Assembly (NCBI GenBank): GCA_964429815.1
Contig: CAYSCM010000001.1
Span: 224,001 to 288,000, forward strand
Length of the DNA stretch: 64,000 nt
Direction: 5' to 3'
DNA from: an uncultured Candidatus Saccharibacteria bacterium
Lineage (GTDB): Bacteria > Patescibacteriota > Minisyncoccia > Phycocordibacterales > CAYSCM01
Of this stretch, positions 4,148 to 57,850 are shown piece by piece (the first letter of the stretch is position 1; each line of letters begins with the position of its first letter). Below the pieces are notes generated by a model. That model saw nothing but the letters and a program-made list of their open reading frames with translations. It searched no databases and was not told where the DNA came from. The translations under genes were made by a program, and so were the position numbers.

Positions 4148-4165
4148 TTCCTTCGAGTTCTTCGT

Positions 4166-4275: not shown

Positions 4276-5415
4276 CTATTGGGGGAGCTGGTCGGTGAGG
4301 AGCTTGGTAAGAGTCGGCGCTACGGTCGCCTGAAAAGTCGCCGCTTGCACCGCGATATCGGCGGAGAGCATGCCACGAAGAGAGGTGCCGCTTCCCGCGA
4401 TAAGAGAGCGATTTATGTGTGCAAGAGTGATGGCATGGAGGTCGCGAATGTCGGTCGTCGGGCCGTCCGAGCTTGTCGAAACGATACCCACGAGGTCGCC
4501 CTTTGAGGAAAAAACACCACCGCCTGAAGAGCCTTTTTGCGCCACAACAGAGCCGCCGATCGAAATGACATCGATGGTCGAGGTGTCGAAGGTGAACACC
4601 TCTTTGATGGTGGTATAGGCCGAACTTACATACAGGTCTCGCAAGATGGTCTCCGCTCCGAGAAAGCCCGCAGGGTAGGCGGCAACGAGCATCGTGGCAC
4701 CTACCGTGAAGGCGTTTTCCGAGGTATCTAGCGAAGTCGCGGGGAATTGCGCTGGGAGCTGGTCGCTTGGGTTGGTGGGGGCGGTCACATAGAGGAGCGC
4801 AAAGTCATTTTCTCCCGTGCCGACCGGCTCGGTACTCTTTATCTGTGGGGCATTGTCACGCACCCACTGCGGCGAAATGTAGAGGAGACCTAGCTTGTAA
4901 CGCGGATATGCTGGGCTTCCGGTGCGAGCAACGCACTCCACAAAGTTGGGCATCGGGTAGTCTTTGAGGAGAAGGTACTGGCCCACGTGGGCATTGGCAA
5001 GAATAACTCCGCGCGAGTCGATAAAGACGCCGCTGGCGGTTATAGGACTAATGACCCCGCCGTACCTCGTGGTGCAGAGAATATTGACGATAGAGGGACG
5101 AGCTACCGCGTTGACGTCAATGCTTGCGTTTGTTGGCGCGGGTGGGGGTGGTGGCGTGAGAACAGTAACTTTTTGGGTTGGGACAGGAGATGCAGACTGA
5201 GCTTTTTTTGCCTCGGGTTTTTGAGTGAGCGTGGCAGCTTGCGTGGTTGTTGCTTGTGTTTGCGCGGCGGTAGTCGCTATTGCCCGGCCTTTCTCAGGCG
5301 GGGGCGCTAGTCGGGGAGTTCCCGGCAGGAGAGTAGAAAGCAGAGCGAGTGTACCTAGAAAAATGCTGAGGAGTAGCTTTCCCGTTAGTGAGTAGATGGC
5401 GGTAAGAAGCGACAT
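4276..5415 (-). CDS. membrane-anchored trypsin-like (S1 family) serine protease with Pro/Thr-rich linker
   Basis: 379 aa; N-terminal TM helix; PPPPP and T/Q-rich linker; ANAHV (His) and GSSGGGV (Ser) catalytic-type motifs. Confidence 0.75.
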   Translation of the reverse strand: MSLLTAIYSLTGKLLLSIFLGTLALLSTLLPGTPRLAPPPEKGRAIATTAAQTQATTTQAATLTQKPEAKKAQSASPVPTQKVTVLTPPPPPAPTNASIDVNAVARPSIVNILCTTRYGGVISPITASGVFIDSRGVILANAHVGQYLLLKDYPMPNFVECVARTGSPAYPRYKLGLLYISPQWVRDNAPQIKSTEPVGTGENDFALLYVTAPTNPSDQLPAQFPATSLDTSENAFTVGATMLVAAYPAGFLGAETILRDLYVSSAYTTIKEVFTFDTSTIDVISIGGSVVAQKGSSGGGVFSSKGDLVGIVSTSSDGPTTDIRDLHAITLAHINRSLIAGSGTSLRGMLSADIAVQAATFQATVAPTLTKLLTDQLPQ

Positions 5416-5492
5416 GCGCGGTCAGTATACCAAAGAGAGTGAAGTGTTTTTCTTTTACTTTTTGTTTGCTACAGTTGCCTTCGAGACGAAAT

Positions 5493-5563
5493 GCGGGCAT
5501 AGTTTAGTGGCAAAATGGGATCCTTCCAAGATTCGGTCGCCGGTTCGATTCCGGCTGCCCGCA
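5493..5563 (+). tRNA. tRNA-Gly (anticodon TCC)
   Basis: Acceptor GCGGGCA/TGCCCGC, anticodon loop CTTCCAA, T-arm GCCGG-TTCGATT-CCGGC. Confidence 0.85.
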
Positions 5564-5604
5564 CAAAATGAAATAAGCGCCGCACAAAGGCGGCGCAGCA
5601 CAAT

Positions 5605-42953: not shown

Positions 42954-43012
42954 AATCAAGACGCTCCCCGCGCGGCCCCTTGCGGCCGCGCGGTTTCTCT
43001 TTTTCATTCAGT

Positions 43013-43041
43013 TGACTATTTTTAGAAGCCCCTCTACAATT
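43013..43041 (+). promoter_or_regulatory. promoter TTGACT-17-TACAAT upstream of tuf
   Basis: Good hexamer match. Confidence 0.5.
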
Positions 43042-43201
43042 CCCCCTACGCAAGAGTGCGTTCTTTTTGTTTACCCCGGTGCACGGCCGAGGGTCACAGA
43101 GAGGCGCGCCAGGCAGATTAATAGAAGCCAAGTCTTCTTGGGTCAGGCGTCTCTCGCGCACTTACTCAAGACAGGGTTGGAAAAATTATAAACACATACA
43201 A

Positions 43202-44427: not shown

Positions 44428-44805
44428 ATGGCAAGCGAAACCACCAAAAAACCCCGCGCACCTCGCACCAAAAAGGCCACTAAGGCCCCCGAGGCGCCGA
44501 TTCAGAAGCTTCGCATACGGGTGCGCGCCTACGAACACAAGCTTCTCGACGCGTCCGTAAAGCAGATCATCGACACGGCAATACGCTTCGACGCGACGGT
44601 CGTGGGGCCGGTTCCGCTTCCTACGGAAATTAAAAAATATACCGTCAATCGCTCGACCTTCGTCCACAAGAATGCGCGAGAGCAGTTCGAGATGCGGGTC
44701 CACAAACGAATGATGGATATCATGAATCCCAATCCGAAGGTGATCGAGGCACTCACGAACCTCAATCTTCCCTCCGGCGTCAACATCGACGTAAAGATGG
44801 TCTAA
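44428..44805 (+). CDS. rpsJ: 30S ribosomal protein S10 with ~25-aa basic N-terminal extension
   Basis: QKLRIRVRAYEHKLLD...GPVPLPT core. Confidence 0.9.
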   Translation: MASETTKKPRAPRTKKATKAPEAPIQKLRIRVRAYEHKLLDASVKQIIDTAIRFDATVVGPVPLPTEIKKYTVNRSTFVHKNAREQFEMRVHKRMMDIMNPNPKVIEALTNLNLPSGVNIDVKMV

Positions 44806-44825
44806 CAAAAATGCGACCACCCAAA

Positions 44826-44850
44826 AACGCTCCCAATCAGGGCGTTTTTT
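44826..44850 (+). terminator. terminator after rpsJ
   Basis: ACGCTCCCAATCAGGGCGT hairpin followed by TTTTTT. Confidence 0.5.
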
Positions 44851-44865
44851 GGTGTTACCGGCACA

Positions 44866-44895
44866 TTGACAAAATGGCCTAATTCGTGCTATAAT
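44866..44895 (+). promoter_or_regulatory. promoter TTGACA-18-TATAAT
   Basis: Exact hexamers; downstream leader contains GTGCAG/CTGCAC inverted repeats. Confidence 0.55.
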
Positions 44896-44962
44896 GTGTG
44901 CAGTATTGAACATCCTGCACTGCAGGCCTGCACCTCAAGGTTTAGGGGTAGGAGTAACTCCG

Positions 44963-45352
44963 ATGACGACCGCCGAAATCAGGATCAGTGGCAAGCGCCC
45001 CCCGAACACTCATGGCATCATGCACCTCTATATTGAGGGACAGGCCAAGCCCATCTACATCTGGACGCCTGAGGAGATCGACTGGCTCTGCGGCCATGCC
45101 GTTCACCGGCTAGACCACGCGTATGACGCTTATCTAAGGGATCTGTCCTGTCCGGAATCGATCGAGAATCCCGAGCTTCGCGAAGCAGTCCGTGTCTGCC
45201 AGAAAGAGCGAGCGGAGAAGGTGCCCCACGAAAAACGCACCTGGCTCCTTCTCTCGCCGAGAAAGATTCGCTATTCGGCGTGGGCGGGGACGCTCGTCCT
45301 TGTCTCGAACCGTGCCCGCATCGAGGAGCTCCTCCAGCTCGCGGCGGCCTAA
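44963..45352 (+). CDS. hypothetical protein (129 aa) inserted between rpsJ and rplC
   Basis: AGGAG RBS 7 nt before ATG 44963; the longer ORF-track version is probably 5'-extended. Confidence 0.45.
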   Translation: MTTAEIRISGKRPPNTHGIMHLYIEGQAKPIYIWTPEEIDWLCGHAVHRLDHAYDAYLRDLSCPESIENPELREAVRVCQKERAEKVPHEKRTWLLLSPRKIRYSAWAGTLVLVSNRARIEELLQLAAA

Positions 45353-45373
45353 GCCCACACGCGCGAACCTATT

Positions 45374-45410
45374 CCGCCCGGAAGTCTCGAACCTCCGGGC
45401 GGTTTTCTTT
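45374..45410 (+). terminator. terminator CCGCCCGGAAGTCTCGAACCTCCGGGCGG + TTTTCTTTT (member of a repeated hairpin family)
   Basis: 9-bp stem; near-identical architecture to 45944-45982. Confidence 0.6.
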
Positions 45411-45438
45411 TGACTTTTTATTTTTTTGTGATATTATT
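45410..45438 (+). promoter_or_regulatory. promoter TTGACT-17-TATTAT
   Basis: Hexamer match; AT-rich spacer. Confidence 0.5.
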
Positions 45439-45482
45439 TTGGAGGCGTCTAGAACCCCCTCAGCACAACTAGGAGTAAGAAT

Positions 45483-45926
45483 ATGAGAAACTCGACCTTC
45501 GGGAAACTCCGCCTCCTGCCTTGGGAGACACGATACACGCCGTTCTCATACTTCATCCGAAATGAAAGAAAAAAGAGAAACGTGTCGCTCAGGGCCTTCT
45601 ATAAATTTCTTGTTGACAGGCACGGAGGACCAATTGTCGGGGTCGATAATTCTCTAATCAGCAGATGGGAAACAGCAAATGCGGAACCGTCCGCTGATGC
45701 AGTGCAAGTTCTTGCAATTATTCTCGAAGTTCCACTGCAGGCGCTAGCATCTCTCATTCCGAGCGCGTGGTCGTTACTACTAATCGAGGTAGCGGATATC
45801 GTGCACATCCTCGCGGAAAGAAAATCCCAGGAGAACATGACGATTGGAGAGATGGTCCGTATGTTGCAGGACCATATTCGCCACAAATACTGGGATGAAA
45901 GCAACGATAGGATTTCACTCAAGTAA
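45483..45926 (+). CDS. XRE/Cro-C1-type helix-turn-helix transcriptional regulator (putative)
   Basis: RBS AGGAGTAAG; segment NVSLRAFYKFLVDRHGG...SLISRWETANAEPSADAVQVLAIILEVPL resembles HTH_XRE; inserted in the S10 operon. Confidence 0.5.
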   Translation: MRNSTFGKLRLLPWETRYTPFSYFIRNERKKRNVSLRAFYKFLVDRHGGPIVGVDNSLISRWETANAEPSADAVQVLAIILEVPLQALASLIPSAWSLLLIEVADIVHILAERKSQENMTIGEMVRMLQDHIRHKYWDESNDRISLK

Positions 45927-45943
45927 CAGATTTTCACCCTTCC

Positions 45944-45982
45944 GCCCGGCAGTCTCGCGACTGCCGGGCGTTTTCTTTTTTA
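45944..45982 (+). terminator. terminator CGCCCGGCAGTCTCGCGACTGCCGGGCG + TTTTCTTTTTT
   Basis: 12-bp stem plus T-run. Confidence 0.65.
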
Positions 45983-46112
45983 TTTGCATATTTTTAGAGG
46001 TTCCTGTAGTGTGTCCCCATTCGCTACGTTCTCTAGGGAATACCCGGTGGGAACCAATGGCAAGAAGGCTCTAAGAGCCCGGCGCCATTGTTGGCGTTTT
46101 TTTGTTTCAACC

Positions 46113-46748
46113 ATGAAATTCATCGTCGGATTCAAACAGCATATGACGCAGATCTTCGACGAAGCTGGCACGGTGCAGCCGGTTACCGTGCTTTCCGCTA
46201 CTCCTAACGTCGTGACTGCCATCAAGAGCAAAGAAAAGGATGGCTATATTGCGGTGCAGGTGGGTGCGGGGGAGCGCAAGGAAAAAAATATTTCAAAAGC
46301 CGTTAAGGGGCACGTGAAAGGCCACGGCAATTTTTCGGTACTTAAAGAGTTCCGCCCCGAAAATGTCGGCGACGAAGGTGAAGTCTCCAAAATGACACCA
46401 GGCACCGCGCTTGCGGTTGATGTGTTCGCTCCGGGCGACAAGGTGGTCGTCTCGGCAATTTCAAAAGGCAAAGGGTTCCAGGGTGTTGTGAAGCGCCACG
46501 GTTTCAAGGGAGATTCTCGCACGCACGGCCGCAAGCACTCCGAGCGCGCACCAGGTTCCATCGGCGGCGGAGGCCGCGCAGGAGGCCGTGTGGTGAAAGG
46601 TATGCGCATGGCAGGCCGCATGGGGTCTGATCGCATTACGGTAAAAAACCTCAAGGTGGTTGCTATCAATAAAGAAGCTGGAGAAATTCTTATTTCGGGA
46701 GCCGTTCCGGGTCGTCGGGGAACGGTCGTTGAAGTGCGCGGCATGTAA
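46113..46748 (+). CDS. rplC: 50S ribosomal protein L3
   Basis: 211 aa from MKFIVGFKQHMTQIFDE; a small hairpin plus T7 run lies 10 nt upstream of the ATG. Confidence 0.9.
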   Translation: MKFIVGFKQHMTQIFDEAGTVQPVTVLSATPNVVTAIKSKEKDGYIAVQVGAGERKEKNISKAVKGHVKGHGNFSVLKEFRPENVGDEGEVSKMTPGTALAVDVFAPGDKVVVSAISKGKGFQGVVKRHGFKGDSRTHGRKHSERAPGSIGGGGRAGGRVVKGMRMAGRMGSDRITVKNLKVVAINKEAGEILISGAVPGRRGTVVEVRGM

Positions 46749-46753
46749 ACACT

Positions 46754-47416
46754 ATGGCTGAAGTAACTATCTACAATCAGAAGGGTGAATCGGCGGGGAA
46801 GGTAAAACTTCCGGGCTTCTTCGAGACGAAGTGGAAGGCGGATGTCGTCCACCAGGTGGTCGTCGCGGAAGCGGCAAACGCTCGTGTGTCTATCGCCAAC
46901 ACCAAGGATAGAAGCGATGTGCGCGGTGGCGGCCGCAAGCCGTGGCAGCAGAAGGGTACCGGCCGAGCTCGTCACGGATCTTCTCGCTCGCCGATCTGGC
47001 GCGGAGGCGGTTCCACCTTTGGTCCGCAGAAAGAAAAGGACTACTCGCAAAAAATCAATAAGTCGATGCGCCGCAGGGCTCTCGCTATGGCACTCTCCCG
47101 CAAGGCCGCCGATGGGGAAGTGATCTTTGTCGATAAGCTCGTCTTTGCAAAGCCTTCAGCTAAAGAGGCTAAGGCAACACTCCTCGCGCTCGGCAAAAAC
47201 AAGGACTTCTCCTCGCTCAAGGATCGCCGCAACAACGCCGCTCTCATCGCGCTTTCCGAAAATGATAAAGAAGCTAAGAAGAGTTTCCGCAATTTCGGCA
47301 ATGTACTGATCGAGGAGGCACGCAACATCACCGCATCCGAGATCCTCGGCAAGAAGTACCTCATCATCGAAAATCCAACCGCGACCCTTCCGCGCTGGGA
47401 AAAAATTCTTAACTAA
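46754..47416 (+). CDS. rplD: 50S ribosomal protein L4
   Basis: 220 aa; RGGGRKPWQQKGTGRARHGS signature. Confidence 0.9.
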   Translation: MAEVTIYNQKGESAGKVKLPGFFETKWKADVVHQVVVAEAANARVSIANTKDRSDVRGGGRKPWQQKGTGRARHGSSRSPIWRGGGSTFGPQKEKDYSQKINKSMRRRALAMALSRKAADGEVIFVDKLVFAKPSAKEAKATLLALGKNKDFSSLKDRRNNAALIALSENDKEAKKSFRNFGNVLIEEARNITASEILGKKYLIIENPTATLPRWEKILN

Positions 47417-47421
47417 CCACC

Positions 47422-47838
47422 ATGGCTCTCTTCAATTTTGGAAAAAAGAAAAAGGACGCTCCGAATCTTCCTAAGAAGGCGACCCAGGCCGTGGCCGCAC
47501 CGGCGAAAGACGTAAAGATTCCGAAGGCAGCAAAAGTCTCGGGGGAGGGAGCGGGACGCTACGCGCACGTGCTTCTTCGCCCGCGCATCACGGAAAAAGC
47601 GACCGATGTCACCTCAAATAGCGTCTACGTTTTTGAAATCGATCCGCGAAGCGACAAGCGTGCCGTGCGTGAGGCGGTCAAAACCCAGTACAAGGTAAAT
47701 CCGGTGAAGATTAACATCGTGAAGCTTCCCGCTAAGCGTGTCGAGTCAAAACTTCGCGGCGGATTTCCGGGCGCGACTGCCGCGACGAAGAAGGCCTACG
47801 TCTACCTTCCTAAAGGAACCACTATTGAACTTGCATAA
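47422..47838 (+). CDS. rplW: 50S ribosomal protein L23 with ~45-aa K/A-rich N-terminal extension
   Basis: Core VLLRPRITEKAT...YVFEIDPRS...VNIV. Confidence 0.85.
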   Translation: MALFNFGKKKKDAPNLPKKATQAVAAPAKDVKIPKAAKVSGEGAGRYAHVLLRPRITEKATDVTSNSVYVFEIDPRSDKRAVREAVKTQYKVNPVKINIVKLPAKRVESKLRGGFPGATAATKKAYVYLPKGTTIELA

Positions 47839-47843
47839 CTATC

Positions 47844-48686
47844 ATGAAAAGCCATAACCCCACTTCAAAAGGCCGCCGTCAGCTTGTCTCGATCGAGTAC
47901 GGCAAATACCTCACCGCAAACGAGCCGTGGAAAGGACTCGTCTCGGGCGGCAAGCGCCGCGTCGGGCGCAACGCGTTCGGCCGTATCACGACTCGCCACA
48001 AGGGCGGCGGCCACAAGCGCCTCTTCCGCGATGTCGACTTCATGCTCACCAAGTTCGATATCCCGGCGCGCGTCGAGACTATTGAATACGACCCGAACCG
48101 CACGGCCTTTATCGCCCGCATCGTCTATCGCGATGGCGAGCGCCGCTACGTGCTCGCGAGCAAATCCATGCGTGTGGGCAATGAACTCCTCATTTCGGAG
48201 AAAGCCCCGGTGAAGCTTGGCAACCGCATGCCGCTTCGCAACATGCCGGTCGGCACTTTTGTCTACAATGTCGAGATTCAGCCGAAGGGGGGCGCCAAAC
48301 TCATCCGCTCGGCAGGGAACACTGCGGAAATCGTCGCGCAAGATGGTGACTACACAAACCTCAAGATGCCTAGTACCGAAGTGCGTCGCGTGCTCTCGGG
48401 GGCGTGGGCGACGATCGGTGAAGTATCCAACGATGAGAACAAGCTCCGCTCACTCGGAAAGGCCGGACGCTCCCGCTGGCTCGGCATTCGCCCGACCGTG
48501 CGCGGCTCCGTCATGAACCCGGTTGATCACCCACACGGCGGCGGCGAGGGTCGCCAGGGACGTGGTCGCCGACGCGCCATCTCCATCTACGGCAAACCGA
48601 CCGGCAAGGGCCAGAAGAGCCGCCGACCGAAGAAGTACAGCAACGGCATGATTCTCTCCCGACGTCGTGTCGGAAAAAACCGCTAA
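47844..48686 (+). CDS. rplB: 50S ribosomal protein L2
   Basis: 280 aa; GRNAFGRITTRHKGGGHKR, VMNPVDHPHGGGEG motifs. Confidence 0.95.
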   Translation: MKSHNPTSKGRRQLVSIEYGKYLTANEPWKGLVSGGKRRVGRNAFGRITTRHKGGGHKRLFRDVDFMLTKFDIPARVETIEYDPNRTAFIARIVYRDGERRYVLASKSMRVGNELLISEKAPVKLGNRMPLRNMPVGTFVYNVEIQPKGGAKLIRSAGNTAEIVAQDGDYTNLKMPSTEVRRVLSGAWATIGEVSNDENKLRSLGKAGRSRWLGIRPTVRGSVMNPVDHPHGGGEGRQGRGRRRAISIYGKPTGKGQKSRRPKKYSNGMILSRRRVGKNR

Positions 48687-48697
48687 AACTGATGAAA

Positions 48698-48723
48698 AAC
48701 GCCGCGACTTCCGTCGCGGCGTT
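48698..48723. terminator. bidirectional terminator hairpin AACGCCGCGACTTCCGTCGCGGCGTT between rplB and a convergent minus-strand gene
   Basis: 10-bp GC stem. Confidence 0.55.
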
Positions 48724-48728
48724 CGTGT

Positions 48729-49391
48729 TCACCAGTACGCAAAGGGATCGCGCCAGTCTGGGTAGTTATCATGGAGCCATCGGTATATTGGAGGATGCAG
48801 TTGCGGAAGTCTAGCTGCACGGCGTTTACTGTCTCTCGCCGCGTCTTCCTCAAGAAGGCGTGTATCTTCATCGGTTATTCCGTCGAACTTTCTTTCCTTC
48901 CGTTTTTCGACGTGCACAATGCCAATAAACTCGGCTGGTTTCTCTGGCTCAACAAAGGTACGGTCGATTACCACGTCGATGATATAGCCTCTTGGCCGTT
49001 CGATGGGAGCGGTGTGAATGTTGGGCGGATTCAAAGCGTAGCGACAATAGACTTGAGCGCTCTCTAAACCAAGTCGATCGTCGCTGAATTCCCGGTGTAT
49101 ATGTACCCGGAGATTCCCTTTCCTATCGAGAACATGAAGAATTCCAGAATCAGGCCTTCCGTAGGCATCGTATCCTTCGACCGCTCTCCAACCGGATGGG
49201 AGCACTACATCGAATCTCACATAATTTGGTGGCGGATTAGCCAACTCGTTAAAGAGTTGTCCATTGAGATCAAATGCTCTCAGCACCTGGAAACCTCCTC
49301 GTTGGAGCGTTTCGCGCATTCCCTTCAGTCCCTGCCAAGGGAATTCTGCATTTTCAAGAGTAAACCAGGGGAGTACTACGGTACCAGACAT
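48729..49391 (-). CDS. hypothetical protein (220 aa) inserted between rplB and rpsS
   Basis: Minus-strand AAGGAG RBS; no recognisable family. Confidence 0.5.
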   Translation of the reverse strand: MSGTVVLPWFTLENAEFPWQGLKGMRETLQRGGFQVLRAFDLNGQLFNELANPPPNYVRFDVVLPSGWRAVEGYDAYGRPDSGILHVLDRKGNLRVHIHREFSDDRLGLESAQVYCRYALNPPNIHTAPIERPRGYIIDVVIDRTFVEPEKPAEFIGIVHVEKRKERKFDGITDEDTRLLEEDAARDSKRRAARLPQLHPPIYRWLHDNYPDWRDPFAYW

Positions 49392-49467
49392 GTAATCTCC
49401 TTTTGTTTGTGGATCAGTCCTGAGGTGACATTAAATTTAAACAGCGCTTTTTGCAATAAAAGAAATT

Positions 49468-49493
49468 CACCCCGCACTTCTTTGTGCGGGGTG
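49468..49493 (-). terminator. minus-strand terminator hairpin CACCCCGCACTTCTTTGTGCGGGGTG
   Basis: 10-bp stem; T-rich on minus strand. Confidence 0.55.
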
Positions 49494-49499
49494 AGTTCG

Positions 49500-49913
49500 T
49501 CATCCGGTCTCGGACGGCACGCTGTTTTCGAGCTGTGAGCCGACCAGAACGAACGAATTAACGAAGATGATGAGAATACCCGCGAGAATGCTAAGAAACC
49601 ACAGCGGGCTCGAGAGGAGTATAATGAAGAGCGTGTAGAGTAGGGTCGCCGTGACGGAAAGCGATGAAAGCCAGGCACTTTCCTCGTCCCAATCCCACTC
49701 CCACTTCACGAAGCTTTCAGCGACCAGATACAGGACGAGGGCCGGCCCGCCAAAGAAAAAGAGGAAAAATCTCGCCCCATCGATCGCCTGAGTCATCATG
49801 GCGTCGAGGGTCATCAGCACGTGCGCCATCGTCCACGGTTTCGTCATAGGTTCTCCCTTCACGGTCTCTTGCGGAACTGTAGATCTTCTTGGGATTTTTG
49901 CAAGAATTTGCAA
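49500..49913 (-). CDS. hypothetical membrane protein (about 3 TM; possible start at 49847)
   Basis: Hydrophobic segments FFLFFFGGPALVLYLV, LLYTLFIILLSSPLWFLSILAGILIIFV. Confidence 0.45.
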   Translation of the reverse strand: MQILAKIPRRSTVPQETVKGEPMTKPWTMAHVLMTLDAMMTQAIDGARFFLFFFGGPALVLYLVAESFVKWEWDWDEESAWLSSLSVTATLLYTLFIILLSSPLWFLSILAGILIIFVNSFVLVGSQLENSVPSETG

Positions 49914-49975
49914 GAATATGAGGGATCCGAAAGAAAAACGCCGCGATCTGATGCATCGCGGCGGGGACCAAAAAT

Positions 49976-50226
49976 TCAGGCAGCGTCCTTTTCGCCGGGG
50001 AATAGAGGGTCGCTAAGCCTGTACTTAGTGATTCCGTCGCGGCGGTAGAGCGTGCCGGGTGCGTAGCCATGGCCTCGCTTCAGGCAGTAGGCCGCGACGT
50101 AGGCCCTCGCTTCCCCTTCGCTCTCGGCCGAAAAGTACTCGAGTTTTTTCTCTGCACTTCGAGCTCCCGAGACGGGATTTCGGAAAAATTTTACGTAGTT
50201 GAACTCGAACTCCTGTCGGGGCATGG
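49976..50226 (-). CDS. hypothetical small protein (83 aa from MPRQEFEF)
   Basis: AAGGAG RBS 6 nt before ATG 50226; the longer ORF-track version is Arg/Gly-rich upstream. Confidence 0.4.
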
Positions 50227-50289
50227 AAGGCTCCTTCAGTTGCGCTCCGGCCACTCTAGACCCGTTCTGTCTCCCTCGCAAGCCTCCGT

Positions 50290-50318
50290 TTGACAGTGCG
50301 GGCTCGCGCGAGTAGTAT
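50290..50318 (+). promoter_or_regulatory. promoter TTGACA-17-TAGTAT restarting transcription at rpsS
   Basis: Hexamer match 40 nt upstream of the rpsS ATG. Confidence 0.5.
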
Positions 50319-50358
50319 GTTGCCACAAGCTCTTCAGCGAGCTTTTTTGATTGAAATT

Positions 50359-50706
50359 ATGAGCCGATCGCTCAAAAAGGGACCCTACGTCGACGAGAAA
50401 CTCCTCAAGAAAATCGAGGGGAAGAAGCCCCAGTCAACCGGGGTTATTAAAACGTGGGCTCGCCGCTCCGTCATCGCTCCTACCATGGTCGGCTTCATCT
50501 TTGGCGTCTACAACGGCAAGCAGCACATCGACGTGCTGGTGACCGAGGAAATGGTAGGGCATCGCCTGGGGGAGTTCTCGCCGACCAAGAAGTTCACCCG
50601 CCATGGCGGCAAGATGCAGAAGGAGCTTGAAATTAAGAAGAAGGAGGCTGAAATTGCCGCCGCGCAGGCCGCAAAGACCGCTGCCGCGGATGCTGGCAAG
50701 AAATAA
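50359..50706 (+). CDS. rpsS: 30S ribosomal protein S19 with A/K-rich C-terminal extension
   Basis: [18 protein letters not shown]...TWARRSVI core; tail [23 protein letters not shown]. Confidence 0.9.
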
Positions 50707-50707
50707 T

Positions 50708-51076
50708 ATGAAAGCCTCTCTCAAAAACTATCGACAGGCTCCGCGAAAGGTGCGCCTCGTGACCGACATGGTGAAAGGGAAGAAAGTTCCTGAAGCTCTC
50801 GTTGCGCTCACCCATCTCCCCAAGCGTGCCGCGCTTCCCATGAAAAAACTCATCGAGTCGGCAAGCAGGAATGCCGAGAATCTCGGCATGAAGCGCGAAA
50901 ATCTTTTCATCAAAGATATTCGAGTCGACAAAGGGATCGTCTTCAAGCGCATCATGCCGCGCGCGCGTGGCCGCGGAGCCCTCATCCGTCGTGAGTCGAG
51001 CCACATTTCTCTTTCTCTTGCTGAAGGTAACCCGCCGAAGAAGGGTCGCAACGCCCCTAAAGCGGTCGCCGCATAA
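50708..51076 (+). CDS. rplV: 50S ribosomal protein L22
   Basis: 122 aa; RQAPRKVRLVTDMVKGK...ARGRGALIRRESSHISL. Confidence 0.9.
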   Translation: MKASLKNYRQAPRKVRLVTDMVKGKKVPEALVALTHLPKRAALPMKKLIESASRNAENLGMKRENLFIKDIRVDKGIVFKRIMPRARGRGALIRRESSHISLSLAEGNPPKKGRNAPKAVAA

Positions 51077-51081
51077 ACACC

Positions 51082-51771
51082 ATGACGCACACCGTACATC
51101 CCTACGCACACCGACTTGGAATACTGCGCGACTGGAAAAGCCGTTGGATAACTTCTGATCCCAAGCGCTTCCGGGAATTTGTGAAATGTGATACGACTAT
51201 TCGCGAGTTCCTCACCAAGCGCTTGCGCGGCCTCTATGTCGCCGGCGTCGACATTGAGCGCAACAATAAAGTGCTTCGCGTCATCATAAAGACTTCCCGC
51301 CCCGGCATGCTCATTGGTCGCTCCGGAGAGGGGGCTGTTAAGCTCAAGGCCGAACTGGAAAAGCTCATCGCCAAGCTCGGGCTCTCCGATCCGGTGCAGC
51401 TCAAGCTCGATATCGAAGAGGTTCGCAATCCGGAAGGCAACGCCGCCATCGTAGCCTACATGGTCGCCGAGGGTCTCGAGAAACGCCTCACGTTCCGGCG
51501 CGTTCTTAAGATGACGGTCGAAAAGGTGATGGCAAACCGCGATGTCATCGGGGTGCGCATCGCCATCGCGGGGCGACTCGGCGGGGCCGACATGAGCCGT
51601 GCGGAGGAGATCAAGCGTGGTCGCATTCCGCTCCAGACACTGCGTGCCGACATTGATTTTGCCCGTGAGAAGGCGTACCTTCCCTACGGCGTTATAGGCG
51701 TCAAAGTCTGGATCTATAAGGGCGAAGTATTCGCCGACCGCAAGGGTAGTGCGCCGAAAACCGCTAAATAA
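51082..51771 (+). CDS. rpsC: 30S ribosomal protein S3
   Basis: 229 aa; KH domain and S3-C domain motifs (GIDIERNNKVLRVII, GRLGGADMSRAEE). Confidence 0.9.
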   Translation: MTHTVHPYAHRLGILRDWKSRWITSDPKRFREFVKCDTTIREFLTKRLRGLYVAGVDIERNNKVLRVIIKTSRPGMLIGRSGEGAVKLKAELEKLIAKLGLSDPVQLKLDIEEVRNPEGNAAIVAYMVAEGLEKRLTFRRVLKMTVEKVMANRDVIGVRIAIAGRLGGADMSRAEEIKRGRIPLQTLRADIDFAREKAYLPYGVIGVKVWIYKGEVFADRKGSAPKTAK

Positions 51772-51776
51772 TCACC

Positions 51777-52196
51777 ATGCTCTTTCCGAAAAAAGTAAAG
51801 CATCGCAAGTGGCAGACCGGACGCTGGAACCCCAAGCGCCTTACCCCCGACACGCGCGGCATTACCGTGGCGTTCGGTTCTTTTGGCCTTCGCGCGATGA
51901 CGCATGCTCGTGTCACGAGCAACCAGATCGAGGCCGGTCGCAAAGCGATATCGCGCCAACTGGGGAAGACCGGCAAGAGCTGGATACGAATTTTCCCCGA
52001 TCGACCGTTTACCAAGAAGCCGCCGGAAGTGAAGCTCGGGAAGGGAAAGGGCGACCCGCAGGGGTACGTCTTTGAGGTGCTCCCCGGGCGCATTCTCTTT
52101 GAGATAGACGGTGTTCCCGAGAGCGTGGCTCACGTAGCCCTGCGCAAGGCAGGCGCCAAACTTCCGGTGCGCACGAAGGTCGTTGCCCGAACATAA
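51777..52196 (+). CDS. rplP: 50S ribosomal protein L16
   Basis: 139 aa; MLFPKKVKHRKWQTGR signature. Confidence 0.9.
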   Translation: MLFPKKVKHRKWQTGRWNPKRLTPDTRGITVAFGSFGLRAMTHARVTSNQIEAGRKAISRQLGKTGKSWIRIFPDRPFTKKPPEVKLGKGKGDPQGYVFEVLPGRILFEIDGVPESVAHVALRKAGAKLPVRTKVVART

Positions 52197-52198
52197 TC

Positions 52199-52387
52199 AT
52201 GGCTACAAACGATTTCAAACATACACCAGAGACGGAACTTCGGAATCTCGCCAACGACAAGCGGGAAGCTCTTCGCGCGTTCCGCTTCGGGGTTGCCGGC
52301 AGCAAGACCCGCAACATCCGCGAGGGGCGCAACCTCAAGCGCGACATTGCCCGCATCGAAACCGAGCTTAACGCTCGAAAGAAATAA
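52199..52387 (+). CDS. rpmC: 50S ribosomal protein L29
   Basis: 62 aa; ELRNLANDKREALRAFRF. Confidence 0.85.
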   Translation: MATNDFKHTPETELRNLANDKREALRAFRFGVAGSKTRNIREGRNLKRDIARIETELNARKK

Positions 52388-52388
52388 T

Positions 52389-52667
52389 ATGATTGCGAAA
52401 ACCACCACAGCATTCAAACGGAAGTTCCAGGGCGTCGTCGTCTCGGACAAAATGCAGCAGACCGCGGTCGTACTCGTCTCGCGCTACGTGAAGCATCCGA
52501 AATACAAGAAGTATCAGCGCCTCACGAAGCGCTACAAGGCGCACAACCCGGAGAACAAGGCAAAGACCGGCGACTCCGTCGTTATTGAGGAGTGCCGTCC
52601 AATAAGCAAGGATAAGCACTTTCAGATATTGTCCATAACGCCCGCCAATTCCGGGGCAGAAGCCTAA
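52389..52667 (+). CDS. rpsQ: 30S ribosomal protein S17
   Basis: 92 aa; FQGVVVSDKMQQTAVVLVSRYVKHPKYKKY. Confidence 0.9.
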   Translation: MIAKTTTAFKRKFQGVVVSDKMQQTAVVLVSRYVKHPKYKKYQRLTKRYKAHNPENKAKTGDSVVIEECRPISKDKHFQILSITPANSGAEA

Positions 52668-52671
52668 TATC

Positions 52672-53043
52672 ATGATCCAGCCCCAGACACTCGTCACCGT
52701 TGCAGACAATTCCGGCGCCAAAATTGCCCGTGTGTTCAAGATTCTTGGAAGCTCCAAGAAGCGCTACGCCGAAATAGGAGACCTCGTTGTCCTCTCGGTC
52801 CAGGTCGCCGAGCCGCGCAAGATGATGAAGAAAAAGGAGGTCGCGACCGCCGTCATCGTGCGCCAGAGGAAGCCTTTTAGGCGCAAGGACGGTTCCTACG
52901 TGCGCTTCGATGAGAACGCGGTCGTCATCATCGATAAAGCAAAAATGGAGCCGAAGGCCGGGCGCGTGTTCGGCCCTATTCCGCGCGAGCTAGGGGAGCG
53001 CGGTTTCCAGAAAATCGTCTCGCTTGCCCCCGAGGTCGTGTAA
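52672..53043 (+). CDS. rplN: 50S ribosomal protein L14
   Basis: 123 aa; MIQPQTLVTVADNSGAK signature. Confidence 0.95.
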   Translation: MIQPQTLVTVADNSGAKIARVFKILGSSKKRYAEIGDLVVLSVQVAEPRKMMKKKEVATAVIVRQRKPFRRKDGSYVRFDENAVVIIDKAKMEPKAGRVFGPIPRELGERGFQKIVSLAPEVV

Positions 53044-53049
53044 TTCATC

Positions 53050-53352
53050 ATGAAAATCCACAAAGGCGATAGCGTCATAGTGATTTCCGGCAAGGACCGC
53101 GGCAAAACGGGCAAAGTTCTCCGCGCACTCCCATCCGAACACAAGGTCGTGGTCGAAGGCGTTAACTTGCTCAAGAAGCACCAGCGCCCCACGCAAAACA
53201 ACCAGAAGGGCCAAATCGTCGAGAAAACGATGCCCATCCATGTAAGTAACGTGATGCTCGTCGATGGGAAGGGTAAGCGCACGCGCGCCAGCTTCCGTCA
53301 CGTGGGAGAAAAGAAGCAGCGCTTTGCCAAAACGACGGGAAGTGAAATCTAA
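53050..53352 (+). CDS. rplX: 50S ribosomal protein L24
   Basis: 100 aa; KOW motif KIHKGDSVIVISGKDRGKTGKV. Confidence 0.9.
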   Translation: MKIHKGDSVIVISGKDRGKTGKVLRALPSEHKVVVEGVNLLKKHQRPTQNNQKGQIVEKTMPIHVSNVMLVDGKGKRTRASFRHVGEKKQRFAKTTGSEI

Positions 53353-53356
53353 TACC

Positions 53357-53878
53357 ATGCTCGAACTCATCAAAAAACAAAACGATGCGCACAAGGCGCT
53401 CTCCTACAAAAACGTAATGCAGACACCAAAGATCGAGAAGGTCATCGTCTCGATCGGCGTTGGCTCTGTGAAGGACAAGAAAAAATTTGACGTCATAACA
53501 GACCGCCTCGCGAAGATCACGGGCCAAAAGGCCGCTCCGCGCGCCGCCAAGAAATCGATTGCAACCTTTAAGCTGCGCCAGGGGGACGTCGTCGGGTTCC
53601 AAATCACGCTCCGAGGCTCGCGCATGAAGAATTTTCTCGAACGCCTTCTCGCGGTGGCGCTTCCACGTACCCGCGACTTCCGTGGGCTTGATCCTAAGGC
53701 TATCGACGAGATGGGTAACCTCACCATCGGCATTAAGGAGCACACTATTTTCCCTGAAACCTCTGACGAGGATCTCAAGGACGTCTTTGGATTTGCCGTG
53801 ACGGTGGTTACTACCGCCAAAAGTCGCGACGAGGCACTGAAGTATCTCACCTACCTCGGATTTCCTTTCAAGAAATAA
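53357..53878 (+). CDS. rplE: 50S ribosomal protein L5
   Basis: 173 aa from MLELIKKQNDAH; FDGRGNLTIGIKE-like L5 core. Confidence 0.9.
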   Translation: MLELIKKQNDAHKALSYKNVMQTPKIEKVIVSIGVGSVKDKKKFDVITDRLAKITGQKAAPRAAKKSIATFKLRQGDVVGFQITLRGSRMKNFLERLLAVALPRTRDFRGLDPKAIDEMGNLTIGIKEHTIFPETSDEDLKDVFGFAVTVVTTAKSRDEALKYLTYLGFPFKK

Positions 53879-54117: not shown

Positions 54118-54759
54118 ATGAGCGAACAACAGATCGCCAAGCTCGCCGGCGCATTGGTGGAGCACCAACGGCATTTCGGTGCCATGCCAACCGAGGATCG
54201 CCAGTGGGCGATCCAGAATACTGAAGCGGCCATCGGTCTATTCGCCGTTGCAGTGAAGAACCGCGACAACGGCCAGACACAGAAACCAAGGACGCTCTTG
54301 AAGTTCGTGGCGAGCGTAAGCATCGCCGCGATCGAAGGCTTCAAAGTCTCCGAGAACTTCGAGGAGGGGAAGTTGGGCCCGGTCAGAATCTATTGGCTCG
54401 GCGACGACTTCAAGAAGCACTTCGGCCGCAAGACCGAGAGCGCTTTGGAAGCAGTCGAGCTGAAGGTTCACACTCTGACCAAGGCTTCGCTCGATGCCCC
54501 GATCATCGCGGAACTCGCGGGCAATGCGGAGATCACGATGGGCCAGTTCTTCGCTCTGCTATCGAAGCAGGGCAAGGGCGAGAGCGGGCCGCTCCTTACG
54601 AACGGCTACGCCAACATCGCCTACATCCGCGACGACGAGGGCGTCCTATGGGCGGTGGACGCCCACTGGCACGCCGGCCGCGGGGGCTGGGACGTCTACG
54701 CCGACTCAGTCGCCTACCCGGGCGAGTGGGACCGGGGTCGCCAGGTTCTTTCCCGCTGA
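54118..54759 (+). CDS. DGR target (variable) protein, 213 aa, C-terminal variable region; no signal peptide detected
   Basis: The last ~33 codons (VR 54658-54756) are the adenine-mutagenised copy of TR; TR N codons (AAC) correspond to D/H/H/G/R/D/Y/D/A/Y/G/D/R in VR. Confidence 0.8.
   Translation: MSEQQIAKLAGALVEHQRHFGAMPTEDRQWAIQNTEAAIGLFAVAVKNRDNGQTQKPRTLLKFVASVSIAAIEGFKVSENFEEGKLGPVRIYWLGDDFKKHFGRKTESALEAVELKVHTLTKASLDAPIIAELAGNAEITMGQFFALLSKQGKGESGPLLTNGYANIAYIRDDEGVLWAVDAHWHAGRGGWDVYADSVAYPGEWDRGRQVLSR
54658..54756 (+). repeat. DGR variable region (VR)
   Basis: ~100-bp alignment to TR with 16 mismatches, every one an A in TR (A->G/C/T in VR), and no non-A differences; homology ends just after the stop codon. 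Confidence 0.85.
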
Positions 54760-55096
54760 TTCTCGAACCCTTAAGCCCTCGGCCTGAGATCCTTTGACCC
54801 TCTGAAACTTTGCGAAGCAATTTGCGAAGGAGTAGGAGGGTCTTCTATTTTTTATTTTGATATAGTAAGACGTGAGGAGTGCTACTGATGCGGCGGCTAC
54901 GGCTTCCGCACAGCGCCTCGAGTATCTGTATCGCCAGAATCACGTCGGCTAAGGCTTGCGCGAGAGCGCGTGCAGGTACTCTTAAAAAAGATAAAGAATC
55001 GGTGCCTCATGCTGGCGGACTTCAAGGTCCCACATACGATACAGCTCGGAGAGTATTCGATGGGTGGTGTTATTGATGGCTTAAGGCACACAACGG

Positions 55097-55206
55097 ATGG
55101 GCGGTGAACGCCAACTGGAACGCCGACAACGGGGGCTGGAACGTCAACGCCAACTCAGTCGACAACCCGAACGAGTGGAACCGGGGTAACCAGGTTCTTT
55201 CCCGCT
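55097..55206 (+). repeat. DGR template repeat (TR); AAC-rich (11 AAC codons in VR frame); followed by hairpin CCCCGCCCTTCGGCGGGG + TTTT
   Basis: See VR; ORF-track entry 55104-55391 is the TR read in the VR frame, not a gene. Confidence 0.85.
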
Positions 55207-55570
55207 ATTCTTTTCTTCCCCCGCCCTTCGGCGGGGTTTTGCTTTCGAGGCCCCTCTTCCATCCCCCAACCATCCGACCCAGTTCGTGCACTTTTTCCGA
55301 GAGAGCAGCATACCTCTTTGTGTCAAGCGCGCGCAGCTCCCATGCGACTCGTAAAAGGAATTTCGCGGTGTCTATTTTTTTGAGTGTGTGAAAAAGTGTC
55401 GGCACTTTTTCACCCGAGCCCTGATAACTTGCGGTGAAGAGAAGTTCCAGCGTGTCTATGAGCGAAAAGTCGATGCGCTCACCGAGTGTATACCGGGCGT
55501 TTTTTGGAAAGTTGTTCCTGCACTCATGCCAGATTTTATATACTGCAACAGCATGTTCAATAACCGGCAA
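55205..55570 (-). CDS. avd: Avd-like accessory protein (four-helix-bundle / 23S rRNA-IVS protein family)
   Basis: 121 aa; HAVAVYKIWHECRNNFPKNARYTLGERIDFSLIDTLELLFTASY resembles IVS/Avd four-helix-bundle proteins; on the strand opposite TR and RT; stop codon abuts the TR 3' end. Confidence 0.65.
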   Translation of the reverse strand: MPVIEHAVAVYKIWHECRNNFPKNARYTLGERIDFSLIDTLELLFTASYQGSGEKVPTLFHTLKKIDTAKFLLRVAWELRALDTKRYAALSEKVHELGRMVGGWKRGLESKTPPKGGGRKE

Positions 55571-55590
55571 AAGTCGTTGGGGGGGTCGCT

Positions 55591-56592
55591 TTGAGGTCGC
55601 AACTCGCTCATACGTATGACGATATCATCTCGCTAGAAAATCTCCTTGCCGCATGGCAGGAATTCGTGCGCGGGAAGCGCAAAAAATGCGACGTGCAAGA
55701 GTTTCAGTTTCGGCTCGTGGACAATATTCTTGAGCTCTACCGTGACTTGAAAGAGAAAACATACACGCATGGGCCGTACCACCCTTTTAAAATAAGCGAC
55801 CCTAAACCCCGCGACATCCACAAGGCGAGCGTACGCGACCGGCTCCTCCACCACGCAATATATCGGAAACTCTATCCATTCTTCGACAAAATTTTCATTG
55901 CCGATTCGTACTCATGCAGGAAAGGCAAAGGAACACACAAGGCGATGAACCGTTTTCGTTCCTTTGCATACAAGGCGAGCTTAAATCACACAAAAACGCT
56001 TTGGGTGCTCAAGTGCGACATCAAAAAGTTCTTTGCATCAGTCGATCAGCATGTTCTCCTGGAGATTATTAGGCGCTGCATTTCTGACACCGACATCCTC
56101 TGGCTCATCGAGCGAGTCGTGCAGAGTTTCAATCCCAGCAGGGAGGGCACGGGTCTCCCGCTCGGCAATCTCACCTCGCAGCTTTTAGTGAATGTGTATA
56201 TGAACGAGTTTGACCAGTTTGTGAAGCGCACCCTCAAAGCGAAATACTACATCCGTTACGCCGATGATTTTGTGATTTTCTCGCAAGATGCGAAATGGCT
56301 CCAACAAATATGCAAATATATCAGCATATTCTTACGTGAACGGCTGAAACTCGAATTGCACCCTAATAAAGTATCGATCACAACGCTCGCATCCGGTATC
56401 GATTTTCTCGGCTGGGTGAATTTTCCTGATCATCGCGTGCTACGCACCTCGACAAAGCGGCGGATGTTGAAGCGAATGACTGGTGAGCAATCTAAAGAGA
56501 TCATCAAACCGTATTTAGGGCTTCTTCAACATGGGAACAGCAAAAAGCTGCAATTGAAAATCTTGTTTGACACAGCAGAGGCAATCAAGTAA
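55591..56592 (+). CDS. DGR-type reverse transcriptase (TTG start)
   Basis: 333 aa; motifs [45 protein letters not shown] (SQ in place of group-II QG), RYADDFVIF; no maturase/X domain; G-rich RBS. Confidence 0.85.
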
Positions 56593-56734: not shown

Positions 56735-56920
56735 ATGGCAAAAACCTCAGTCATCGTTCGAAGCAAACGAAAGCCCAAGTTTAAGTCTCGGGTTGTTCGT
56801 CGCTGTTTCAAGTGCGGACGCAAGCGCAGCTACATGCGCGACTTTGACCTGTGCCGCATCTGCTTCCGCGAACTCGCGAACGAAGGCATGATCCCGGGCA
56901 TTAAGAAAAGCTCCTGGTAA
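56735..56920 (+). CDS. rpsN: 30S ribosomal protein S14, zinc-binding type Z
   Basis: 61 aa; [25 protein letters not shown] (C4 zinc ribbon). Confidence 0.85.
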
Positions 56921-56925
56921 TTTCC

Positions 56926-57309
56926 ATGTTGATCACTGACCCAGTCGGAGATTTCATAGTGCGCCTCAAGAACGCGACCGACGCGGGACGCTCGTCGACG
57001 ACGGCGCCCTACAGCAAGCTGAGAGCCGCTATCGCGGAGAGTCTCAAGGGCCGCGGCTTCATCAAGAGCTACGACAAACGCGGCAAGAAGGCGAAAAAGG
57101 TCATCGAAATCGAACTCATCCCTGAGAAGATCCAAGGCGTCGCGCGCGTCAGCAAGCCGGGCCGCCGCCTCTACATTCGCGTCAACGAGATCAAGGCCGT
57201 CCGTTCCGGACAAGGAGCACTCGTGCTTTCGACCCCGAAGGGAATTCTCACCGATCGCGAAGCCCGCAAAGAAAACGTCGGCGGCGAAGCGCTCTTCAAA
57301 ATCTGGTAA
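56926..57309 (+). CDS. rpsH: 30S ribosomal protein S8
   Basis: 127 aa; DPVGDFIVRLKNA signature. Confidence 0.9.
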   Translation: MLITDPVGDFIVRLKNATDAGRSSTTAPYSKLRAAIAESLKGRGFIKSYDKRGKKAKKVIEIELIPEKIQGVARVSKPGRRLYIRVNEIKAVRSGQGALVLSTPKGILTDREARKENVGGEALFKIW

Positions 57310-57313
57310 TTCT

Positions 57314-57850
57314 ATGAGCCGCGTCGGAAAACAAATCATCATGGTCCCCGAAAAAACCGAGCTCACCCTCACGGGAGACCTTGTGTCTGTGAAGGGGCCG
57401 CTTGGAGAGCTCTCCCGGGCACTCGATAGCCGCATCAAGGTGGAAGTAAACGGCAACGAAGTAAAAGTTCTTCCCGCAGTCGCCGGTAAAGAGGGAGACG
57501 TCCTCTCGGGAACCTACGTCGCTCATATCAAGAATATGGTCGAGGGCGTCAACAAGCCCTTTGTTAAAAAACTCATCATCGAGGGTATCGGCTACAAGGC
57601 CGACGCGCAGGGCGATACCATCACTTTCGGCCTCGGTTTCTCGCACCCGATCAAGGTGAAGATTCCGACGGGTCTCAAGGTTACGACCGAAAAAGGTGTC
57701 ATCACGATTTCGGGAAGCAACGTCGAGCAGGTCGGGCAGTTCGCCGCGGACCTGCGGGATCTTAAGCGCCCAGAGCCGTACAAGGGGAAGGGTATCCGCT
57801 ACGAGGGCGAGGTCATTCACCGCAAGGAAGGTAAGAAGAACGTCGCATAA
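57314..57850 (+). CDS. rplF: 50S ribosomal protein L6
   Basis: 178 aa; MSRVGKQII...KPEPYKGKGIRYEGE. Confidence 0.9.
   Translation: MSRVGKQIIMVPEKTELTLTGDLVSVKGPLGELSRALDSRIKVEVNGNEVKVLPAVAGKEGDVLSGTYVAHIKNMVEGVNKPFVKKLIIEGIGYKADAQGDTITFGLGFSHPIKVKIPTGLKVTTEKGVITISGSNVEQVGQFAADLRDLKRPEPYKGKGIRYEGEVIHRKEGKKNVA

Follow-up and report, generated by a model that had tools for sequence, protein, structure and literature searches.

Why do three antisense genes separate rplB from rpsS in a bacterium whose ribosomal protein (r-protein) cluster is tightly packed at most junctions? The locus lies within a stretch of 64,000 nucleotides (nt) of contig CAYSCM010000001.1, positions 224,001–288,000, from an uncultured Candidatus Saccharibacteria bacterium, and this whole stretch is referred to below as the window. 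The S10–spc region is among the most conserved bacterial gene arrangements and serves as a marker block for binning and for the phylogenomics of uncultured lineages; in Escherichia coli and Bacillus subtilis, rpsJ-rplCDWB-rpsS are co-transcribed as a contiguous S10 operon. The analysis presented here indicates that the rplB–rpsS spacer is probably a lineage-typical break point in the Paceibacteria r-protein cluster, acting as a slot in which genes turn over, and not the scar of a one-off insertion.

Organization of the rplB–rpsS spacer

The spacer between the end of rplB at 48686 and the start of rpsS at 50359 measures 1672 bp and holds three open reading frames (ORFs), ORF1, ORF2 and ORF3, all on the minus strand and antisense to the ribosomal genes (Table 1), as a preliminary description of this DNA had reported. 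Upstream, rplB forms the last gene of the transcription unit rplC-rplD-rplW-rplB, and its product, L2, is 84% identical in amino acid (aa) sequence to that of the nearest relative (L002). The arrangement departs from a contiguous S10 operon, in which genes are adjacent and no internal terminator or promoter intervenes: in addition to the spacer itself, a hairpin follows rplB and a predicted promoter precedes rpsS. Over window positions 45805–49594, which cover rplC, rplB, ORF1 and the 3′ end of ORF2, the sequence agrees at 100% identity with an independent Logan assembly (L001), so the arrangement is not a chimera or an assembly artefact. None of the three ORFs matches a family in Pfam, NCBIfam or PADLOC (PADLOC-DB: 0 families at E ≤ 1), in agreement with the preliminary description.

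The break recurs at fixed junctions across the lineage

The notion that rplB and rpsS are normally contiguous, which the preliminary description had stated, is documented for bacteria generally in the operon-cluster literature (e.g., PMC8046335, PMC6735719) but does not hold for this clade. The junction survey was drawn from the best 80 rpsS matches in 185,579 species genomes. The best matches are all Patescibacteria metagenome-assembled genomes (MAGs), most of them labelled Paceibacterota, Parcubacteria, Kaiserbacteria, Zambryskiibacteria or similar, and a crude neighbour-joining tree groups the window with L002 and a Kaiserbacteria MAG. The source of the window is itself assigned to the Patescibacteria/Paceibacteria, as a MAG. 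When every junction from S10 to L6 is measured in the loci of these relatives, the L2/S19 gap has a median of 854 bp, exceeds 300 bp in 52 of 62 relatives and reaches 5576 bp. The L5/S14 gap follows, with a median of 780 bp, a maximum of 2943 bp and more than 300 bp in 34/52, while S10/L3 shows a median of 95 bp, a maximum of 2464 bp and wide gaps (>300 bp) in 16/51. At the remaining 13 junctions the median lies in the range −50 to 27 bp, and at most one gap per junction is above 300 bp. In the window, the open junctions are S10/L3 (1307 bp), L2/S19 (1672 bp) and L5/S14 (2856 bp), and all other junctions measure 1–6 bp.

Wide gaps are spread over the whole neighbour-joining tree, and sister taxa differ strongly in the length of the L2/S19 gap (699 vs 3544, 567 vs 2502 and 71 vs 3646 bp). 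The rplB–rpsS break is an old, lineage-wide feature, and its cargo is young. Full-text literature searches yielded no account of the S10 operon being split in Patescibacteria; as far as these searches show, a clade-wide habit of splitting S10–spc at fixed junctions and using them as variable gene slots is previously undescribed.

Predicted termination after rplB and restart at rpsS

The two hairpins placed by the preliminary description at 48698–48723 and 49468–49493 both exist and fold strongly, the second being mapped here as 49464–49497. The first, shared by the convergent rplB and ORF1, folds at −21.6 kcal/mol on the plus strand and −23.8 kcal/mol on the minus strand (z −4.6 and −6.7), and a U run accompanies it on the latter strand; it was overlooked by the terminator scan, its stem being taken from repeat and folding analyses and its TTTTT tail from the sequence. 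The second, behind ORF2, folds at −23.8 kcal/mol (z −7.2) and carries a U-rich tail after the stem, and the hairpin behind ORF3 is weaker, at −17.7 kcal/mol (z −2.1). All three combine a GC-rich stem-loop with a U run just past a stop codon, the features expected of intrinsic (Rho-independent) terminators, and are predicted as such. Among the relatives, 19 of 52 loci have a terminator-like hairpin no more than 80 nt past rplB, against 1.1 expected. As a separate observation, the hairpins after ORF1/rplB and after ORF3 have an identical 14-nt 5′ arm, GAAAAACGCCGCGA (window 48694–48707 and 49933–49946), and the 13-mer GAAAAACGCCGCG occurs in the window only at these two sites; the identity may reflect chance or a duplicated terminator module.

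Ahead of rpsS, a putative sigma-70-type promoter is recognized by its hexamers, a spacing within 16–18 nt and a conserved position, which bears out the earlier remark that rpsS has a promoter of its own. About 40 of 55 relatives have the same element, TTGAC[AT]-16/17-TAGTAT, in front of rpsS, and its −10 hexamer there usually ends 28–47 nt ahead of the ATG. With this conservation and a break that is lineage-wide, the accompanying suggestion that rpsS newly acquires its promoter at this locus has to be abandoned. The promoter-like site of ORF1 falls under the 9/12 threshold of the scan and is proposed on resemblance to the consensus.

The promoter is followed by a short leader hairpin with a U tract. 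Of 55 relatives, 35 have a hairpin with a T run at ≤70 nt upstream of rpsS, where shuffled sequences predict 6.4, and 23 different stem sequences are used. In an alignment of 28 sequences, pairing holds in 82% of cells, and both sides have changed in 5 of 6 pairs; the observed covariation score is reached by 0 of 500 shuffles and exceeds that of every slid register. Folded as a single sequence, the hairpin does not stand out (z −1.1), and Rfam gives no match in the window at the gathering threshold, the region 48600–50450 returning only a chance-level hit to ClpQY_promoter (E 0.12). Attenuator-type r-protein leaders and 5′-terminal stabilizing stem-loops likewise have a conserved stem-loop and U tract separating the promoter from the first r-protein gene. 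The E. coli S10 leader is an attenuator-type r-protein operon leader regulated by L4, whereas the rpsS leader spans just about 34 nt with a single 5–7 bp hairpin and has no Rfam match.

The combination of hairpin and U tract followed by an ATG within 8–15 nt, with no obvious Shine-Dalgarno (SD) sequence, heads three translation-gene units in the window. Because it also stands after the tuf promoter and before rplC, it looks like a general design of highly expressed units in this host rather than an rpsS-specific device, and it may be a lineage-specific expression signal.

Under the proposed break-point model, transcription of rplC–rplB would end at the bidirectional terminator, and the conserved promoter together with the leader hairpin would restart transcription at rpsS. 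The spacer would tolerate insertions because both halves are already transcriptionally independent. The actual transcription pattern, like any function of the genes, is what we infer here.

Turnover of spacer cargo between relatives

Comparison with the nearest relative (loci L002, L003 and L004) reveals how fast the contents change. The DNA of the r-protein genes is 75–84% identical, and none of the three islands of the window is held in common at the DNA level; at L2/S19, homology extends to 48677 and begins again at 50280, some 80 nt ahead of rpsS. The L2/S19 island of the relative encodes a 110-aa membrane protein orthologous to ORF2, together with a 93-aa and an 85-aa ORF, all antisense, and lacks ORF1. 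The synteny comparison at rplB–rpsS that the preliminary description had proposed thus finds a junction split by varying cargo, in which ORF2 is the sole gene shared with the nearest relative.

Across the survey, clustering of 426 gap ORFs yields one family present in 9 loci, the rest being pairs or singletons. That family, the commonest occupant of L2/S19, is a prokaryotic diacylglycerol kinase by Pfam (PF01219, E 1e-30), encoded on the sense strand in 9 of the loci examined, including L012 (6535–6930) and L023 (4658–5074). Other cargo comprises an orotidine monophosphate decarboxylase (pyrF), a phosphoribosyltransferase, a histidine kinase, DUF3298, a DUF2103 protein and orphans. Gap ORFs lie on both strands (70 plus, 40 minus).

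These observations bear on the proposal that one mobile element, for instance an integrative islet or the remnant of a prophage, carried a three-gene cassette into an intact S10 operon. The absence of the spacer DNA from the nearest relative at the nucleotide level, the GC content of the island, somewhat below that of the flanking r-protein genes, and the foreign composition and phage homologue of ORF1 described below would all suit such an event. An integrative element is nevertheless rejected, and the single-element origin as a whole is unlikely: no integrase or transposase is found among the three ORFs in Pfam or NCBIfam, flanking direct and inverted repeats occur at chance level only, and the nearest tRNA genes lie at 2979–5564. 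Moreover, 52 of the 62 relatives already have a split junction, the rpsS promoter being conserved, ORF2 occupies the same site in the nearest relative and ORF1 does not, codon usage differs among the three genes (ORF1 atypical, ORF2 and ORF3 host-like), and the genes have separate predicted terminators. With ORF2 resident at this place in the relative, ORF1 absent there and foreign, and ORF3 an orphan, the single three-gene insert of the preliminary description is not upheld.

The slot shares with genomic islets and hotspots flanked by core genes a fixed core pair and a cargo that varies even between close relatives and is partly foreign. It differs from them in having no recombinase, tRNA or att-like repeat and in being bracketed by r-protein genes, which most bacteria transcribe together. 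Insertions into the r-protein supercluster have also been published: tusDCB separates rpoBC from str, bfd-bfr stands between str and S10, and nrdHEF lies inside the rpoBC operon. The published cases resemble the present one in placing unrelated genes within a conserved cluster, in leaving the flanking units their promoters and in being lineage-specific events. Most of the events quoted from that work lie between operons, whereas the Paceibacteria breaks lie inside the S10 (L2/S19, S10/L3) and spc (L5/S14) operons of model bacteria, recur across the whole clade and turn over their contents rapidly.

ORF2 and ORF3

ORF2 encodes an acidic small membrane protein with about three transmembrane (TM) segments (hydropathy segments at residues 24–47 and 58–107), which agrees with the earlier assignment of the middle gene as a membrane protein; TM1 and TM2 are separated by a conserved W-x-W-D-E-E motif. 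Its start is likely the ATG at 49847, which has a ribosome-binding site (RBS), rather than the upstream TTG that ends the mechanical ORF; the 115-aa form is the one on record, the protein collection containing exactly this product as P0031. The codons of ORF2 resemble those of the host, scoring a log-likelihood ratio of 0.34 per codon, and its GC content at third codon positions (GC3) is 0.73. The syntenic homologue in the nearest relative is 28% identical over 110 aa (E 7e-10) and has the same architecture and the WDEE motif. Judged from these features, ORF2 is probably a real gene.

ORF3 is a weaker candidate and appears the least certain of the three. The end at 50226 given in the preliminary description is out of frame, the gene being 49976–50224 with 82 aa. 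The codon log-likelihood ratio of ORF3, 0.13, is near the bottom of the range spanned by the reference genes; in composition the gene looks host-like. Database searches with either ORF2 or ORF3 recover nothing but the query, for ORF3 among 5.8e9 proteins. Relative to the positionally equivalent 85-aa ORF of L002, ORF3 shows weak N-terminal similarity (Smith-Waterman z 2.7), with 1.9% of shuffles scoring as high. Codon usage, RBS and conservation, which had been named as a check on whether the ORFs are coding, give a graded outcome: strong for ORF1 through its homologues and their invariant motifs, good for ORF2, and weak and without a homologue for ORF3.

This gradient bears on the view that the spacer is non-coding DNA with regulatory hairpins and that the ORFs, in part or in total, are spurious. 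Such a view, possible for ORF3 only, would draw on the lack of any ORF3 homologue among the 5.8e9 proteins, on its marginal codon score and on the single distant relative of ORF2. It is quite unlikely, considering the purifying selection (41 invariant columns, eight homologues at about 50% identity) and confident fold of ORF1, the host-like codons of ORF2 with its three-TM architecture and motif kept in the orthologue, and the correctly placed RBS and terminator that accompany all three ORFs.

The small size of the genes, the membrane protein and small basic protein of unknown function, the variable slot and a diversity-generating retroelement (DGR) in a neighbouring slot might instead suggest a functional module, such as toxin–antitoxin, abortive infection or other defence, parked in a safe locus. 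This reading is highly improbable. PADLOC returns no match, the trio is not co-inherited, separate terminators speak against an operon, and homologues of ORF1 stand alone elsewhere. Additionally, the searches made found neither the trio nor any pair of it co-occurring in unrelated genomes.

ORF1 belongs to a rare family shared with phages

The 220-aa product of ORF1, which the preliminary description had singled out, is indeed the most interesting of the three. A search of 5.8e9 proteins gives 7 homologues at 45–50% identity, and a profile search of 1.84e9 representatives gives 19 matches. The alignment of the eight closest members contains 41 invariant columns, and a near-invariant C-terminal motif, WLxxxYPxWxDPxAYW, is kept in the 21-member family alignment. 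On this pattern of conservation, ORF1 is certainly a real gene under purifying selection. Measured against a codon reference set of 22 genes, its composition is foreign: GC3 is 0.466 versus 0.682 ± 0.067 (z −3.2), and the codon log-likelihood ratio is −0.05 versus 0.42 ± 0.13. Because of this composition and its absence from the nearest relative, ORF1 is probably a recent horizontal acquisition from a lower-GC source, placed between the rplB terminator and ORF2; the direction of the event, a gain and not a loss, is likewise something that we infer.

Searches for known relatives give little. In PHROGs, ORF1 has only a marginal local match to phrog_22221, of unknown function (E 4e-4, residues 156–188). 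A Pfam scan of all 21 family members gives no match, and sequence-profile searches of the PDB with the family alignments give no match for alignment A1 and nothing below E 0.2 for alignment A2. The AlphaFold model built from the 21-sequence alignment has a mean predicted local distance difference test score (pLDDT) of 92.4 and a predicted template-modelling score (pTM) of 0.86, and replaces a poor run with 8 sequences (pLDDT 57). In it, an N-terminal β-α-β unit is accompanied by an antiparallel sheet and a long helix, and the aromatic tail is well ordered; the protein is predicted to be soluble and α+β, with an aromatic C-terminal tail modelled at high confidence. Its best structural neighbours are the NTF2-like/SnoaL-like α+β cone folds, on which one portion of the ORF1 model, a helix with a curved antiparallel sheet packed on it, superposes over about 65–75 residues. 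Comparison of the model with libraries of solved and viral structures gives no match. Structure prediction and remote-homology searching, as proposed at the outset for these proteins, have in the case of ORF1 yielded a confident model, no fold match and no usable profile match.

Scanning metagenome loci with alignment A1 retrieves 2 loci, and a viral scan retrieves 1. The viral homologue (193 aa; L089, 5485–6066; IMGVR_UViG_2848853605_000003) lies on a 65-kb IMG/VR contig, flanked by genes for head morphogenesis (phrog_241) and scaffold (phrog_206), and matches ORF1 in hhalign with a probability of 97.8% (E 1e-12). A position between phage morphogenesis genes is typical for accessory "moron" genes. 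The ORF1 family is, by this profile comparison, common to phages and bacteria of the Candidate Phyla Radiation (CPR). Two proteins, P0027 (456 aa) and P0030 (329 aa), carry a shorter version of the ORF1 domain in two tandem copies, each copy ending in W-L-D-x-x-Y-P-x-W-x-(D/N)-P-x-A-Y-W, which suggests that a domain boundary is marked by the C-terminal motif. Partial profile matches were also seen in P0026 and P0029; these giant proteins are Ig-like/MBG repeat proteins, and the matches were judged spurious.

The genomic contexts of the cellular homologues help to weigh whether the spacer genes, and ORF1 especially, are ribosome or translation accessory factors kept in place for co-regulation. 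Three ORF1 homologues lie 0.5–1 kb from a gene for a CCA-adding enzyme (PolyA_pol + HD; L005 4495–7064, L007 746–3839, L091 1–2226), a proximity that, with the location inside the r-protein cluster and the conservation of ORF2 at the site in the nearest relative, could be read as a translational connection. Orientations near cca vary, however, other genes intervene and there is no operon, and the proximity may be inherited synteny among related genomes instead of a functional link. Other homologues lie near def-fmt or an APH-type kinase and none in an r-protein cluster; no conserved partner gene recurs across the contexts, those of distant members being too short to inform. As the spacer genes are also antisense to the r-protein genes with terminators of their own, the same-gap cargo of relatives is functionally unrelated, and one family member is a phage gene, a ribosome-related role is very unlikely. 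A link between the cargo and the ribosome is unsupported, with ORF1 homologues outside r-protein clusters and miscellaneous gap cargo in the relatives. With low confidence, ORF1 may be a mobile accessory protein, for which a binding or an immunity/anti-defence module would be likelier than an enzyme or a ribosome factor.

Neighbouring islands and feature coordinates

The two other open junctions of the window are also occupied (Table 1). Between rplE and rpsN, inside the r-protein cluster, lies a complete DGR, comprising a reverse transcriptase and a template repeat (TR) and variable repeat (VR) that differ only at template adenines, the combination by which such elements are recognized. The same L5/S14 gap in the nearest relative holds unrelated 330-aa and 136-aa ORFs. 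A third variable island, between rpsJ and rplC, encodes a 152-aa ORF and a helix-turn-helix regulator with its own promoter and terminator hairpin.

Table 1. Features of the r-protein cluster and its islands (window coordinates; promoter, terminator and leader entries are predictions)
Feature	Position	Strand	Details
Promoter upstream of tuf	43012–43040
Leader after tuf promoter	43012–43080		Recurring hairpin + U tract design
tuf		+	First in the cluster order, followed by rpsJ
rpsJ	44428–44805	+
rpsJ–rplC island	44806–45941		Third variable island
152-aa ORF	44894–45352		No family
Promoter of regulator	45410–45437		TTGACT-16-TATTAT
HTH_3/XRE-type regulator	45483–45926		147 aa; Pfam E 7e-5
Terminator hairpin of regulator island	about 45947–45970
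Leader before rplC	46085–46112		Recurring design
rplC-rplD-rplW-rplB	about 46113–48686	+
rplB (L2)	47844–48686	+	Pfam Ribosomal_L2_N/C, E 1e-29 and 1e-49
Bidirectional intrinsic-terminator hairpin	48698–48723	both	Common to convergent rplB and ORF1; 11-nt perfect arms, 4-nt loop
ORF1	48729–49391	−	220 aa; ATG; strong SD AAGGAG at 49397–49402
Promoter-like site of ORF1	49428–49456	−	TTGCAA-17-TAATGT, read from sequence
Intrinsic terminator of ORF2	49464–49497	−	Terminator scan; 14-nt arms, 93% complementary
ORF2	49500–49847	−	115 aa; ATG at 49847; RBS GGGAGAA; mechanical ORF to TTG at 49913 gives 137 aa
Intrinsic terminator of ORF3	49939–49963	−	Terminator scan; 9 pairs, 7 GC, then TTTTTCTTTC
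ORF3	49976–50224	−	82 aa; SD GGAG; basic (isoelectric point 9.1), soluble
Sigma-70-type promoter of rpsS–rplE unit	50290–50318	+	TTGACA-17-TAGTAT; 10/12 consensus matches
Leader before rpsS	50290–50358		Recurring design
5′-leader hairpin of rpsS	50327–50344	+	AAGCTC-loop-GAGCTT, then U tract; listed by the scan as terminator-like; ends 14 nt before rpsS ATG
rpsS (S19)	50359–50706	+	Pfam Ribosomal_S19, E 2e-33; first gene of downstream unit
rpsS through rplE	50359–53878	+
DGR	54118–56592		Between rplE and rpsN
DGR target gene	54118–54759		213 aa; no Pfam match; VR 54648–54757
DGR TR	55097–55206		110 nt; 85% identical to VR; every mismatch at a TR adenine
DGR reverse transcriptase	55591–56592		RVT_1, E 4e-26
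rpsN-rpsH-rplF	56738–57850	+

Discussion

The locus is best explained as an old break between two independently expressed halves of the S10 operon, into which genes come and go. In this explanation, slot contents would change fast between relatives: ORF2 would be the older resident, common to the nearest relative; ORF3 would be a fast-evolving gene or an orphan, possibly also an older resident; and ORF1 would be a later horizontal acquisition, from a source of lower GC.

Several points weigh against this explanation. The restriction of the survey to the best rpsS matches limits how far across the clade the pattern can be extended. The roles assigned to promoters, terminators and leader rest on consensus, conservation and covariation, and a terminator-like hairpin placed right after a promoter is ambiguous, since it could be an attenuator, a 5′ stabilizer or something else. 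Furthermore, ORF3, which has no homologue, may not be expressed, and the absence of ORF1 from L002 could reflect loss instead of gain, though its composition argues for gain.

A broader scenario joins these elements, and is put forward tentatively as a doubtful whole. Paceibacteria would have turned S10/L3, L2/S19 and L5/S14 into conserved, promoter-insulated turnover slots with a preference for horizontally acquired and hypervariable cargo, here the complete DGR and ORF1. ORF1 would found a new fold and family, marked by its C-terminal motif and common to CPR bacteria and phages, with a role in the interaction of host and episymbiont or of phage and host, for example as an immunity or anti-defence binder.

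For annotators, the break-point explanation carries the warning that such breaks should not be treated as misassemblies. The ORF1 family, confidently modelled yet without a match among solved or viral structures, belongs to the CPR and phage "dark matter" that would be worth solving, and the slots would be a practical place to seek recently acquired accessory genes in CPR MAGs. For the organisms themselves, the split cluster bears on how the synthesis of r-proteins is coordinated in reduced genomes.

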